The notes under the pieces: model-generated | The model's input: only the letters and a program-made list of their open reading frames with translations | Database searches by the model: none | Told to the model about the DNA's origin: nothing | Program-made: the position numbers and the translations under genes | In this document: positions 17,265-23,964 of the stretch, one piece after another | Position numbering within the stretch: position 1 is the stretch's first letter | How the letters are laid out: every line of letters begins with the position of its first letter | From: Chloroflexota bacterium | Lineage (GTDB): Bacteria > Chloroflexota > Dehalococcoidia > Lucifugimonadales > Australimonadaceae | DNA length: 64,000 nt | Direction of reading: 5' to 3' | Assembly: GCA_009838965.1 (NCBI GenBank) | Contig: VXQP01000078.1 | Span: forward strand, 388-64,387

Positions 17265-19013
<1,749 letters not shown>

Positions 19014-19041
19014 CGGGTCTGCCTCGCTGGTGTTCTGCTAC

Positions 19042-19070
19042 GAGAAAGGGGCGCTCGGCGCGCCCCTTCT
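19042..19070 (-). terminator. Attenuator-type hairpin between the leader peptide and thrS
   Basis: Minus strand AAGGGGCGC-GCCGA-GCGCCCCTT then TCTC. Short U-tract. Confidence 0.7.
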
Positions 19071-19101
19071 GCATGGTTGGAGACCGCGTACGCGCCCAGG
19101 C

Positions 19102-19194
19102 TTATGCGGCCACGGCTGCCGTCTCGCGGACGCGCGCAGCCGCGGCCCTCGTAGTGCGGGTCGTCGTGGTTGTCGTGACTGCGGTGCGCTGCAT
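19102..19194 (-). CDS. Thr-rich leader (attenuator) peptide MQRTAVTTTTTTRTTRAAAARVRETAAVAA
   Basis: 30 codons with 10 Thr (six consecutive, all four Thr codons used), directly upstream of thrS and downstream of TGCTACAAT. Confidence 0.85.
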   Translation of the reverse strand: MQRTAVTTTTTTRTTRAAAARVRETAAVAA

Positions 19195-19204
19195 GACGCT
19201 GCGC

Positions 19205-19258
19205 ATTGTAGCACGCCCCCGCATGAACGGGCGCAGGCGTGGACGCCGGTGCTACAAT
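19205..19258. promoter_or_regulatory. Divergent extended -10 promoters (TGCTACAAT on both strands) for the thr leader/thrS and xdhC
   Basis: TACAAT on minus at 19210-19205 and on plus at 19253-19258, each preceded by TGC. Confidence 0.65.
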
Positions 19259-19287
19259 CGTTCCACGATGCGGGGGAGGGTGAGCGC

Positions 19288-20412
19288 ATGAAGGCCGTCT
19301 ACGACGAAGCAACAGCGCTGACGCATGACGGACAGGACTTCGTCATCGCAACCGTCGTGCACACGCAGGGCTCGACGCCCCAGAAGCCGGGCGCGGCGCT
19401 CCTGGTGCGGGGCGACGGCTCGACCGTCGGCACGCTTGGCGGCGGCTGCGTCGAGGGCGACATCTGGTTCGCCGCCAAGGAAGCGCTCCGCGAGAACACC
19501 GGCCCGCAGTACAAGCGCTACTACCTGAACGAGGACATCGCCGCGCGCGACGGCCTCGTCTGCGGCGGCACGATGTACTTCTACATCGAGCCGCTCACCG
19601 GCCAAGCATCCGGGCGAGAGCTCTCCGCGGAGATCGCCGACGCCTACGCCGGAGGCCCCAGCCTCTCCGTAGCGACGCTCGTGAAGAGCGACCGGCTCGC
19701 GCAGGGCACGCGCATCGTCGTCCGCGAGGACGGCACGTCCGAGGGGACGCTCGGCGACGCGGCGCTCGACGCCGAGGCGATCGAGACCGCGAAGGACGTC
19801 ATGCCGATGGGGCGCACCGCCCGCATCCACACAGAGCAGGGCGACGAGCTGTTCGTCGAGGGCTACACCGCGCCCGCGCTGCTCGTCCTCATCGGCGGGG
19901 GGCACGTCAACCTACAGGTCGCGCGCATCGGGCACATGATGGGCCTGCGCGTGATGGTGACCGACGACCGCCGCGAGTTCGCGAACAATGAGCGCTTCCC
20001 GATGGCGGAGGCGACGAACGTCGCGCCGTACGACCGGGGCGTAGACGCGTTCCCGGTGACGCCGAACACGGCCATCGTCATCGGCTCGCGCGGGCACCAC
20101 TTCGACGACCTCGCGACCGAGGCGGCGGCGCGCACGAACGCGGGCTACGTGGGTCTGCTGGGCAGCAAGCGCAAGACCATCATGATCTACGAGTCGCTGC
20201 TGCGGAAGGGCGTGCCGGAGGAGCGGCTGCGCGAGATACACGCGCCGGTGGGCCTCGACCTCGGCGGACGCGCTCCGGAGGAGATCGCGCTCAGCATCGT
20301 GTCGGAGATCGTGGCGTGGCGGAACGGCCGCACCGGCGGTCCGATGACGATGGAGCCGTTCCACCTCGACCGGCTCGTCGCCAAGGTGAACGGCGCGGCA
20401 GCGCCCCGGTAG
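19288..20412 (+). CDS. XdhC/CoxI family molybdenum-hydroxylase accessory protein
   Basis: 'GSTPQKPGA', 'GTLGGGCVEG', 'GLVCGG', 'YVGLLGSKRK', 'APVGLDLGGRAPEEIALSI'. Confidence 0.92.
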   Translation: MKAVYDEATALTHDGQDFVIATVVHTQGSTPQKPGAALLVRGDGSTVGTLGGGCVEGDIWFAAKEALRENTGPQYKRYYLNEDIAARDGLVCGGTMYFYIEPLTGQASGRELSAEIADAYAGGPSLSVATLVKSDRLAQGTRIVVREDGTSEGTLGDAALDAEAIETAKDVMPMGRTARIHTEQGDELFVEGYTAPALLVLIGGGHVNLQVARIGHMMGLRVMVTDDRREFANNERFPMAEATNVAPYDRGVDAFPVTPNTAIVIGSRGHHFDDLATEAAARTNAGYVGLLGSKRKTIMIYESLLRKGVPEERLREIHAPVGLDLGGRAPEEIALSIVSEIVAWRNGRTGGPMTMEPFHLDRLVAKVNGAAAPR

Positions 20413-20442
20413 GGGGCTGCGCCCTACCGGTGGCGTATTCCA

Positions 20443-23400
20443 ATGCGAGTATCAGGCATTGATTTCCCAGACTATTTGCTCGACGCGCTGCATAGAGGCA
20501 AGCTAGTAGTCTTCGCCGGTGCGGGTGTTTCAATGGGCGACCCAGCCAACCTGCCCGATTTTGACAATCTGGCACACGCCATCGCGCAAGGAACTGGGCT
20601 CAGCAGAACATCTGGCGAGCAAGTCGATGCCTTCCTCGGAAGGCTCGCATTCCGCGGAGTCGCGGTCAATCAGAAGGCAGCAGAACTCCTGACACAAGGA
20701 AATCCCCGGCCGACCAGCCTGCATCGTGATCTACTCAGGCTTTTCGGTCATATCCGGAGTGTGCGTATCGTAACGACCAATTTTGACCAGTTATTTGAAG
20801 AGGCATCCGGCTCTACATTCAATAGCGTTCCCGAAGTTTTTGGAGGACCTGCTTTACCGTTGGGGAAGCGTTTCCAAGGAATTGTTCATCTCCATGGTTC
20901 ACTCATGCGACCTGATGAGATGATTCTCACCGATCAGCAGTTTGGTCAAGCTTATCTCACTGAAGAGTGGGCTCGGCGCTTTGTAGTCGATTTGTTCCGT
21001 ACCTACAGCGTCTTGTTTATCGGGTACAGCCACAGCGACATTATAATGAACTACCTAGCTCGAGCCTTACGCCTAGAAGACCCGCAACCGCGTTTTGTTC
21101 TCGCACGTGAAGGTCAAGACAACGAACAATGGGCATCTCTAGGAATCAGCCCTATATTTTATCCCGACCACGAGGATGGATCACATAGTGCACTATATCA
21201 AGGAGTCTCAGCCCTTTCTGACGTAATCAATCGTGGAACATTGGAATGGCGATTTCTTATTCACGCTGCGGCGAGACAAAAGCCCTCTTTATTGACACAA
21301 GAAGAAGAAGACAATGTACAAAATGCTTTTTCAGATGAAACACGCCTTTCATTCTTTACCGATAGTGCGTTCGACTCTGCTTGGGTCACGTGGCTGGACA
21401 GCCGAGGGTTGTTTGACAATCTGTTCACAACAGCAGAACCTAGCGCTCAAGAGGTCCTCTTGTCACAGTGGCTGGCCACTAGATTCTCTGTAACACACTC
21501 GTCACATGTGTTCAATCTGATTGCTAAGCACGGTGGACAACCGAATGCCGTTCTTTGGGAAAACCTATGCACAACCATCGGCGGTGGCTCTGACTCGTTA
21601 GACCCGTCAGTGTTGGATAGGTGGGTTTCCGTTTTGGTAAATGGCATGCCCACACAGCTACCAGGTCCTTTCTTCAATTATTCACTTGCCAGGCTAGCAC
21701 AACAATGCTCTCGATACCATCTCTTTGACGCGCTGTTGGACATAGTAGCCGCCTTATCTGTGAGTTCTTTGCCGCTATTACAAGCAGACCACTACTTTGG
21801 AGACGATGAATCGTCCAACCATTACATAATCAAACGGGTTTGGGATGACTCAGTAGCCATGCATCTCGACGCCTTAGCGGAGCCATTACTATCGTTAGCA
21901 GTTCGTGGTTTATGGAGGAGATACGTTGTCGGTAGGACTTGGCGAAACAACAATCGTTACTTTGACGCCCACAGCTGGGGACGTGCCGCGATTGAGCCAC
22001 ATAGCCAGAACAAACAGCCTCGCGTAACAGATGCGCTGCTCGATATGGCACGTGATTGCCTAAGCCATATAGCAGAACGCAATATTACAGTCCTTCAATG
22101 TTGGTGCGACTATTTGGTGGCCTCAGATGCTCCTCTGCTTCGGCGATTAGCCATTCACACAATGGCCCAGCGCGGTGATCTTTCAGCAGATTCTAAAGTG
22201 GATTGGTTACTGTCTCAAACAGATATTCATGAGATAGCCTTGCACCATGAAATTTACCAGGCATTGCGAATTATCTATCCGTCCGCTGATAGTATTCATA
22301 GACAACAAATCATCGACTCTATCCTGAAGTATCAAATGCCTCGTAAAGGAGATATAGATAGCCAGAGGCTTACTGCCTATCACCGCTTTAGCCTATTCAA
22401 TTGGTTACATGAAGCCTTTCCCGGTTGCAAATTGGCATTAGAGAGGCTGAATGAGGTCATACGAGAGTACCCATACTTTGAAGCGCGTGACCATCCAGAT
22501 TTAACTCATTGGATCACATCAGAACAATATCTCCCATTGAGCCCTTGGACTGTAGAATCGTTACTTTCTAGGCCTGCAGGAGAATGGCGAGAAGAGCTCT
22601 TGGCATTCCAGGACGACTCGATGTCTGGGCCCAATCGGGAAGGCGTCAAGGATGCCATCAGGGAGGCACTCCGCCAAGATTACGAATGGGGGTTTAAATT
22701 AGCCAGTGCTCTAGTCGCGAACGAGAATTGGGACAGCTATATCTGGTCATCCATAGTTGAGGCCTGGTCGGACGAGTTAACTGCAAGACAGCATCGGCAG
22801 GTTCTTCAACTGCTAGACCAACCTGCACTCCTAGCGGAACACCCAAGTGAGTTATCTGATTTACTCCTTAGCCTTGTCAAGAAGAATACGGCGCCATACC
22901 CATTAGTCGTAGAGGCGAATCCTCTAGCAGCAAAGCTTAAGAACTATATAATCCAGGATAAGCGTATCTTATCGGAAGCAGACTGGCTGCAGCAGGCTAT
23001 CAATCATCCTGCCGGAGCCCTTGCAGAGTATTGGCTGCATAGTTTGACCATCCATAGGAAACAGTACCCAGATAGGGCTGCTTTAAATGAAGAATACCTA
23101 TCAGCTTTATCAAAGATTGTCGAGGATGAGACACTCGTTGGACACCTCGGTAAGGCGATTCTTGGAAGAAACGTTCATTTCTTGCTCGATACCGACAGCG
23201 AATGGACAAAGAAATACTTCTTGCCTATCTTCAATGACTATACGAAGAAAGAGGCGTGCCGAGCAGTCTGGGCCGGCTTTATGTACGGTAGGCCTCTCAC
23301 TCCAGCAGTTGCAGACTTAATGAAAGAGTATTTCTTAGAAGCATTGCCATACTTTGAAGAGCTGTTCCCCGAAGAAGCACTCCGGTCTGGGTTCATATCT

Positions 23401-23964
23401 CGCTATGTGGCGATGCTGATTTACTTTGTAGAAGACCCCTTCACTGAGTGGGTTCCTCGATTCTTCCAATATGCTGATTCGACTCAACACAGGCGACACT
23501 TCGTAGATTCCATCGGCATGGTTCTGAGGAATACGGGGGAAGCTCCTTTGTCAGAGTTCTGGAATACATTTGTCAAGCCCTTCTGGCAAGGCCGGTTGCG
23601 AAGCATACCCCCGCCTCCTTTGGAGGATGAGGAGATTGAGGCCATGCTGGACTGGTTACCCTATCTGGGTGCCCAGTTTCCCGAAGCCGTTGAACTGGTA
23701 GCCCAGACTCCGGGAGCAAAACTGGACGACGGTCTACTAGTGTTCGGCCTGAAGGATCGCGGGCTTGGGGAAGTGTACCCCGAGGCAACTGCGCAATTGA
23801 TGATTTATCTTGGCGCCTCAGTCCAAGGACTAGCGGACTGGCGATGGCACTTGGCCAAAGACCTCATCGACGGGCTTCTTGAACTTGACCTATCGGAAGA
23901 TTCAAGGACCAGACTGCAAGAGTTGCAGGTCAGGCTTGGCTTAGGAGACCAGCCGGAAGGATAG
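20443..23964 (+). CDS. SIR2-domain anti-phage protein, Dsr1-like (N-terminal SIR2 NADase, long helical C-terminus, DUF4020-like)
   Basis: 'VVFAGAGVS', 'IVTTNFD', 'HLHGS', 'LFIGYS' in a 1173-aa protein. Visibly AT-richer than its flanks. Confidence 0.8.
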   Translation: MRVSGIDFPDYLLDALHRGKLVVFAGAGVSMGDPANLPDFDNLAHAIAQGTGLSRTSGEQVDAFLGRLAFRGVAVNQKAAELLTQGNPRPTSLHRDLLRLFGHIRSVRIVTTNFDQLFEEASGSTFNSVPEVFGGPALPLGKRFQGIVHLHGSLMRPDEMILTDQQFGQAYLTEEWARRFVVDLFRTYSVLFIGYSHSDIIMNYLARALRLEDPQPRFVLAREGQDNEQWASLGISPIFYPDHEDGSHSALYQGVSALSDVINRGTLEWRFLIHAAARQKPSLLTQEEEDNVQNAFSDETRLSFFTDSAFDSAWVTWLDSRGLFDNLFTTAEPSAQEVLLSQWLATRFSVTHSSHVFNLIAKHGGQPNAVLWENLCTTIGGGSDSLDPSVLDRWVSVLVNGMPTQLPGPFFNYSLARLAQQCSRYHLFDALLDIVAALSVSSLPLLQADHYFGDDESSNHYIIKRVWDDSVAMHLDALAEPLLSLAVRGLWRRYVVGRTWRNNNRYFDAHSWGRAAIEPHSQNKQPRVTDALLDMARDCLSHIAERNITVLQCWCDYLVASDAPLLRRLAIHTMAQRGDLSADSKVDWLLSQTDIHEIALHHEIYQALRIIYPSADSIHRQQIIDSILKYQMPRKGDIDSQRLTAYHRFSLFNWLHEAFPGCKLALERLNEVIREYPYFEARDHPDLTHWITSEQYLPLSPWTVESLLSRPAGEWREELLAFQDDSMSGPNREGVKDAIREALRQDYEWGFKLASALVANENWDSYIWSSIVEAWSDELTARQHRQVLQLLDQPALLAEHPSELSDLLLSLVKKNTAPYPLVVEANPLAAKLKNYIIQDKRILSEADWLQQAINHPAGALAEYWLHSLTIHRKQYPDRAALNEEYLSALSKIVEDETLVGHLGKAILGRNVHFLLDTDSEWTKKYFLPIFNDYTKKEACRAVWAGFMYGRPLTPAVADLMKEYFLEALPYFEELFPEEALRSGFISRYVAMLIYFVEDPFTEWVPRFFQYADSTQHRRHFVDSIGMVLRNTGEAPLSEFWNTFVKPFWQGRLRSIPPPPLEDEEIEAMLDWLPYLGAQFPEAVELVAQTPGAKLDDGLLVFGLKDRGLGEVYPEATAQLMIYLGASVQGLADWRWHLAKDLIDGLLELDLSEDSRTRLQELQVRLGLGDQPEG

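Follow-up and report, generated by a model that had tools for sequence, protein, structure and literature searches.

A putative threonine-sensing leader-peptide attenuator upstream of thrS in one family of Chloroflexota

The thrS gene in a 64,000-nucleotide stretch of Chloroflexota DNA (the window, meaning the whole stretch that was analysed) is very probably controlled by a ribosome-mediated transcription attenuator, in which translation of a Thr-rich leader peptide would sense Thr-tRNA. Such a leader had been proposed at thrS in an earlier note on this DNA, and the proposal gained support from comparison with relatives: the Thr run is kept in 8 genera, indels within the leader ORF are in frame, and a terminator hairpin follows the ORF at 16/16 representative loci. 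Comparative sequence analysis makes it a well-supported reading that a known kind of switch is present here in one Chloroflexota family, where it was not previously described in the literature searched.

Results

The thrS gene and its surroundings

The gene under the proposed control is thrS (17265-19013, minus strand), encoding a threonyl-tRNA synthetase (ThrRS) of 582 aa. The name was assigned from full-length matches in relatives together with the distant relatives that were found; the 582-aa product was also recognised from its sequence as what we take to be threonyl-tRNA synthetase. Full-length matches had 98% identity within the genus, falling to ∼50-69% for the order's other families, and the closest named ThrRS genes (66% identity) were from Chloroflexota and Dehalococcoidia MAGs. 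All DNA runs that held the stretch and for which an organism was shown carried a sponge metagenome label.

A 275-nt gap separates thrS from a divergent gene and holds the entire leader element, which is read on the minus strand. The divergent neighbour (19288-20412, plus strand) encodes an XdhC-family maturation factor, whose best NCBIfam match, XdhC_rel_AOR, scored 275 bits, under the model cut-off of 350. The same XdhC-family/thrS arrangement was found at two related loci (L024 and L019). Because this upstream gene is divergent, there is no preceding gene whose transcript the hairpin ahead of thrS could terminate. Beyond the neighbour, the G+C content of the window falls from ∼0.70 to 0.49-0.59 between 20400 and 21000, where a 1173-aa ORF (20443-23964, plus strand) begins.

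Organisation of the leader

Leader coordinates refer throughout to the minus strand. The promoter element is an extended -10 box, TGCTACAAT (19213-19205), with 10 nt from its hexamer to the leader ATG (19194-19192). The leader ORF, MQRTAVTTTTTTRTTRAAAARVRETAAVAA, comprises 30 codons (19194-19105) followed by TAA (19104-19102). Ten of the 30 codons specify Thr (ACG x5, ACC x3, ACA x1 and ACT x1), and eight of these fall within a 10-codon window. The main run consists of six consecutive codons, ACG ACA ACC ACG ACG ACC (19176-19159), and is the proposed stalling site; a second pair, ACT ACG (19155-19150), is positioned 2 nt ahead of a stem, designated stem A. No Shine-Dalgarno sequence precedes the leader ATG, so translation of the ORF would depend on a putative leaderless start. 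From the spacing of the -10 box, the leader mRNA is predicted to be leaderless or to have a 5' UTR of ∼0-3 nt.

Stem A (19147-19108) lies within the ORF and ends 3 nt short of the stop. It comprises 12 bp and a 4-bp apical helix, its arms (19147-19136 with 19119-19108) forming 11 Watson-Crick pairs and one G-T pair. It is part of both the MFE fold and the consensus fold of 22 relatives. After the stop, the heptamer GGCGCGT (19096-19090), the candidate 5' strand of an antiterminator, begins 8 nt past the first base of the stop and is complementary to 19063-19057, which corresponds to the 3' half of the terminator 5' arm plus three loop bases. The predicted intrinsic terminator (19067-19043, -17.3 kcal/mol) has 7-8 pairs (5' arm 19066-19060, 3' arm 19054-19048), the loop GCCGA (19059-19055) and the tail TTTCT. 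From the last tail base (19043) there are 29 nt to the thrS ATG (19013), which is preceded at 8 nt by the Shine-Dalgarno sequence GAGG (19025-19022), the same in 22/22 aligned sequences. The earlier note had described a near-leaderless 30-codon ORF with ten Thr residues, using all four codons, as well as the 12-bp stem and a GC hairpin, its short tail rich in U, about 30 nt before the thrS ATG; all three were recovered, the promoter and ORF spanning 19213-19102, and the stop-codon position is the sole coordinate added.

General-purpose searches passed over the element. A consensus promoter and terminator scan of the window called neither feature at the thrS leader, because its rule demands five T in eight and both promoter hexamers. 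The fold of the whole leader was not more stable than that of shuffled sequences (z = -1.31). A search of 18000-20500 against Rfam with E up to 10 returned four chance-level matches, among them no leader family and no Thr_leader; the T-box model (RF00230) had no match at thrS in the same search. Four runs of RNA libraries covered small shares of the stretch only, with contigs that matched parts of it and came from relatives; such contigs are blind to transcript starts, ends and levels. One 190-nt contig extended across the promoter (19112-19302), for which DNA or antisense RNA are both possible sources.

Distribution among relatives

The thrS upstream regions of four genome sets were assessed with one fixed criterion. 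The ORF had to start with ATG or GTG, to be 10-45 codons long with 5 or more Thr in some stretch of 10 codons, and to lie on the thrS strand no more than 330 nt upstream of the gene. The hairpin had to have -11 kcal/mol or better and a T-rich tail, and to start 5-49 nt past the ORF stop. Positive results were obtained for 17/21 assessable genomes of the window's genus, 14/32 loci from other genera of the family, 0/15 loci from other families of the order and 0/77 distant genomes from many phyla. Three more distant genomes had too little upstream sequence, and one congener (G008), with the 3' part of thrS only, was placed outside the 21. The positives amounted to 31/53 family loci in 8 genera, at ThrRS identities of 100% down to ∼58%.

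The leader peptides diverge among the 8 genera (MQRLTTTTTTQTTAPPG, MRALTTTTATIEATANTAAGVVTVAAATVS, MQTVIGATTTTTTGPTTKATAGRALETAAVAAPA, MHTTATRTTTGPTTQAAALRVPETAAVAAPA, MRVLWTTRITFLTTGATTRATTE, MRAFTTTTKATAVTTPAAVFAVARHSS) and keep the Thr run. The promoter region GTGCTACAATG was identical in 17/17 sequences of the genus. Sixteen representative loci were compared across genera. A TGnTAnnAT-like box was present 7-10 nt ahead of the ATG at 14 of them, from seven genera; at the other two (L115 and L134) none was found in the 20 nt ahead of the ATG. All 16 had a hairpin and T-rich tail 21-36 nt past the stop, at -15 to -20.6 kcal/mol and with tails of up to six T in two genera. A palindromic repeat of the form TCATTCCCGCGAAGGCGGGAATCC was also seen in intergenic positions, upstream of the leader promoter at L009, L012 and L111-L114, and elsewhere in the window's own genome (contig C94 near 31000); it looks like a REP-type repeat. 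At L004 and L010 a second Thr-rich frame (at least 6 Thr in 10 codons) occurs ∼430-470 nt upstream of thrS. This frame is outside the leader and probably within or antisense to the divergent gene.

Negative loci in the family were of more than one kind. Three congeners (L018, L020 and L021) have another upstream gene and a TAGAAT box (TGATAGAAT or TGGTAGAAT) ending 6-7 nt before the thrS ATG, which suggests a leaderless thrS mRNA with no attenuator. The congener L019 retains promoter and terminator, with an ORF that is down to three Thr and lacks a stop ahead of the hairpin, and L116 and L129 keep the promoter box and hairpin with no Thr-rich ORF; these three loci are apparent decayed attenuators. 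Rfam at gathering score, applied to the thrS loci of 37 criterion-negative relatives and 3 distant genomes, gave nothing upstream but one tRNA, and no T-box. Since the element is missing in four congeners and at 18/32 loci from the family's other genera, it is dispensable. Judged from these loci, the attenuator is lost or replaced repeatedly within the family, which would thus offer a natural series for the gain and loss of such switches.

Proposed mechanism

In the proposed attenuator, transcription would begin at the leader ATG or a few bases away, and a ribosome would translate the 30-codon leader behind RNA polymerase. With ample Thr-tRNA the ribosome would proceed to the TAA and cover the GC-rich segment that follows, so that the terminator folds and most transcripts end at ∼19043. 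With scarce Thr-tRNA, for example through insufficient ThrRS activity, the ribosome would stall within the run of six Thr codons or at ACT ACG. The free post-stop segment could then pair with the loop and 5' arm of the terminator ahead of synthesis of the 3' arm, allowing readthrough into thrS. In the window's genus a segment of stem A may capture the terminator 5' arm instead. Stem A itself may act as a pause site that holds RNA polymerase until the ribosome arrives, or as a spacer hairpin. As low ThrRS activity lowers charging, the predicted response to threonine would amount to homeostatic feedback on thrS. The genome has tRNA-Thr genes with the anticodons CGT, TGT and GGT, and with all four kinds of Thr codon in the leader all three isoacceptors would be sampled.

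A more elaborate version, which we regard as doubtful, treats the leader as a two-tier sensor, carried by a leaderless mRNA and combining a pause at stem A, two Thr blocks and a post-stop segment with a dual role. Stem A would hold RNA polymerase for a ribosome initiated as a 70S particle, the two Thr blocks, jointly using all four Thr codons, would read the three tRNA-Thr isoacceptors, and the post-stop segment would serve as antiterminator strand and would also, through the pairing GCCT:AGGC, mask the thrS ribosome-binding site.

Terminator and candidate antiterminator pairing

For the simpler attenuator, the terminator and its competing partner were compared locus by locus. The terminator is conserved in the consensus fold, with 3/25 columns variable in the genus. 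Within the segment from the stop to the terminator, the best partner of the terminator 5' arm and loop starts 0-10 nt past the first base of the stop at 16/16 loci. A ribosome terminating at the stop would, from the size of its footprint, cover 19104 to about 19092. The duplex of the post-stop segment with the 5' arm and loop was calculated at -16.2 kcal/mol in the window, and that with the 3' arm at -14.2 kcal/mol. The hexamer GGGCGC, to which the earlier note had assigned pairing with the 3' arm, is present after the leader stop (19097-19092) and such pairing is possible in the window, yet the 5' arm and loop are the stronger partner at 14/16 loci, so that the observation stands and the assigned partner is revised.

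Pairing strengths were set against dinucleotide shuffles. In other genera the post-stop pairing beat the shuffles (fraction at least as good 0.000-0.106), and in the window's genus it was no better than they were (fraction 0.33-0.52), because in a GCGC-rich composition such duplexes are cheap. In genera with short leaders no other stretch of the leader paired nearly as well with the 5' arm as the post-stop segment did. Genera with stem A have a rival segment inside the stem that pairs about as well; in the window it lies at 19144-19131 and was calculated at -17.9 kcal/mol vs -16.3 kcal/mol for the post-stop segment. A double compensatory change was found between two species of one genus, L122 having AG with loop CT and L130 having GT with loop AC; terminator-loop bases are involved in the change. 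A column-based covariation test of the antiterminator was dropped, as the post-stop and terminator columns of two genera were offset by one or two, and the per-locus duplexes and shuffles were used in its place.

Constrained folds were calculated with a 28-nt ribosome footprint placed on the Thr codons or on the stop. The folds of L024, L123 and L130 switched between the two ribosome states as the model predicts. Those of the window's own leader (L001) did not switch, the terminator being favoured at equilibrium in every state (P 0.96-1.00). In classical attenuators the terminator is likewise favoured at equilibrium, and kinetics decide. Pairing of the Thr run with the post-stop segment, the classical 1:2 helix, appeared in unconstrained folds of L001 and L024 and not in those of L013 and L111, and is not claimed.

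These results bear on an alternative in which the Thr-rich ORF does sense Thr-tRNA, with an output other than intrinsic termination: Rho-dependent termination after release of the ribosome, or translation of thrS via GCCT:AGGC. The lack of significance of the antiterminator in the window's genus and the short TTTCT tail are consistent with it. So is the pairing of GCCT (19101-19098) with AGGC at the thrS ribosome-binding site (19024-19021) in the consensus fold, each pair being present in 20-22/22 sequences. These pairs show no both-sided change among the 22 sequences, which tells against the translational form, and the pairing could be an added translational control or chance. The alternative is further opposed by the strong hairpins and T tails behind the leader in 16/16, with up to six T in two genera, and by the good support for the antiterminator in sister genera; it is considered unlikely.

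Coding signature of the leader ORF

Conservation of the ORF was assessed in an alignment of 22 sequences from three genera, 17 of them from the window's genus. Indels within the ORF measured 9, 6 and 3 nt, all multiples of three, and the flanks contained 1-nt indels. In the Thr run of the genus, three sites varied in at least two genomes and each was a third codon position; three non-synonymous changes were singletons in two genomes. Third positions of the Thr codons also varied within and between genera. Alignment of thrS upstream regions had been put forward in the earlier note as a check for a conserved Thr run with synonymous variation, and this is the pattern obtained, the run being kept and the shared variation confined to third positions. 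Across the whole ORF, variable sites in the genus were evenly spread over the codon positions (6, 6 and 7), which fits a peptide whose sequence is irrelevant outside the regulatory codons and is by itself no evidence for coding.

Two parts of the ORF vary little. The ACT ACG pair is invariant in 22/22 aligned sequences from the three genera, within the constant columns C64-G70 as numbered on the first sequence, and the C-terminal ETAAVAA is conserved. The latter overlaps the 3' arm of stem A, and its conservation is accordingly read as an RNA constraint. Stem A has 11 pairs in the consensus structure and is nearly invariant in the three genera. Its variation comprised one pair changed from G-T to A-T, on one side, in 4 sequences, and another that was G-T in 2 sequences and broken in 2.

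On a non-coding reading of the same region, the RNA leader would be bound by a factor, either ThrRS, as at the E. coli thrS operator, or tRNA, and the ACN repeats would be an RNA motif. The invariance of some synonymous positions (ACT ACG) in three genera agrees with this, as does a CTCGTAA-like motif behind the terminator in most congeners. In the window, on the minus strand at about 19033-19042, it reads CTCGTAG, where most congeners have CTCGTAA. The motif separates the terminator from the Shine-Dalgarno sequence and presumably has the general form of the tRNA-Thr (CGT) anticodon loop; by eye, no stable hairpin presenting CTCGTAA or CTCGTAG as a loop was seen. An RNA motif of this sort is hard to reconcile with a frame kept by indels of 9, 6 and 3 nt, with free variation of Thr-codon third positions, or with the recurrence across genera of a -10 box 7-10 nt ahead of the ATG and of a terminator 21-36 nt past an in-frame stop, and no Rfam match was found at E up to 10. 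We therefore hold a non-coding leader to be very unlikely.

Rarity within the genome and other charging sensors

The 3.01-Mb assembly was scanned in six frames for at least 8 ACN in 10 codons. Only three places were found, the thrS leader included, and the remaining two were out-of-frame stretches within long ORFs. No further convincing leader emerged from two genome-wide scans for short ORFs that contain an amino-acid run and lie ahead of a terminator. The sole additional hit of the first scan was a Ser-rich ORF. In the second, the Thr-rich row, the one inspected among its other rows, lay out of frame where a gene ends. That the unit is an independent small gene or RNA, specifying a 30-residue peptide or a trans-acting terminated transcript and adjacent to thrS by accident, is scarcely credible: promoter, ORF and terminator do make up a complete small transcription unit, but the peptide is conserved only in the Thr run and the part encoding stem A, the unit was seen only upstream of thrS and on its strand at 31 loci, and no second copy or similar unit was found in the genome.

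The attenuator proposed for thrS may share its genome with a different class of sensor. The T-box model gave four matches in the window's own genome (C29:71581-71810, C1:89505-89766, C94:21079-21386 and C9:8210-8477), two of them above the Rfam cut-off. The genes downstream of the four are ilvB (acetolactate synthase large subunit), trpE (anthranilate synthase I), a citramalate synthase gene and ileS. With T-boxes at these genes and a leader peptide at thrS, two different sensors of tRNA charge would operate in one genome.

Discussion

The leader of this Chloroflexota family would add a third route of thrS control to the T-boxes of Bacillota and the translational autorepression of E. coli. It also provides a rule by which annotators could recognise a small ORF missed by gene callers. 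A full-text literature search found no leader-peptide attenuation in Chloroflexi and no Thr-run leader at thrS, although supplementary survey tables could list some; the available portions of PMC2965389, PMC4833913, PMC9413887, PMC10274678 and PMC6614838 contained nothing on thrS leaders.

Several well-characterised systems offer points of comparison. In Bacillota thrS is usually controlled by a T-box (RF00230), which contains no ORF and makes direct contact with uncharged tRNA. The leader described here resembles a T-box in its proposed sensing of tRNA charging and its proposed antitermination upstream of a synthetase gene; it differs in that sensing would occur via a translated ORF, and in the lack of a T-box match at thrS. 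In E. coli, thrS is subject to translational autorepression by ThrRS.

Leader-peptide attenuation is textbook regulation. E. coli thrL controls the biosynthesis genes thrABC, carries Ile codons as well as Thr codons and has a Shine-Dalgarno sequence. Common to thrL and the present leader are the run of Thr codons in a leader peptide and, as proposed here, the logic of terminator and antiterminator. In the window the putatively controlled gene encodes a synthetase, there is no Shine-Dalgarno sequence, and Thr_leader (presumably RF00506) gave no match at E up to 10.

The classic case at a synthetase gene is E. coli pheM-pheST, in which, as here, a short ORF rich in cognate codons and an intrinsic terminator precede an aminoacyl-tRNA synthetase gene, and the feedback acts on tRNA charging rather than on amino-acid synthesis. 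The amino acid and the phylum are different, and the leader described here has no Shine-Dalgarno sequence and is apparently leaderless. There is no sequence similarity to pheM-pheST and no Rfam leader family was matched. The earlier note had called sensing of Thr-tRNA by a ribosome at thrS an unusual solution for this lineage, a judgement that holds only in part, given a classic precedent such as pheM-pheST. It is weakened further by a leaderless thrL that has been proposed at thrS of Streptomyces lividans (PMC8079986).

This S. lividans thrL is the one printed thrS precedent found in the literature search. In PMC8079986, a leaderless short ORF in S. lividans TK24 is proposed as a Thr-dependent attenuator of thrS, and leaders at leuS, trpS and alaS are also listed. 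The thrL peptide has 18 residues, two of them Thr, and the authors report no clear Rho-independent terminator. In both systems the host is a high-GC bacterium and thrS is preceded by a short ORF with a proposed leaderless start. Set against this thrL, the Chloroflexota leader has ten Thr residues, a clear T-tailed hairpin and a distribution over 31 loci in 8 genera, and its comparative support is far better than that for the printed S. lividans precedent.
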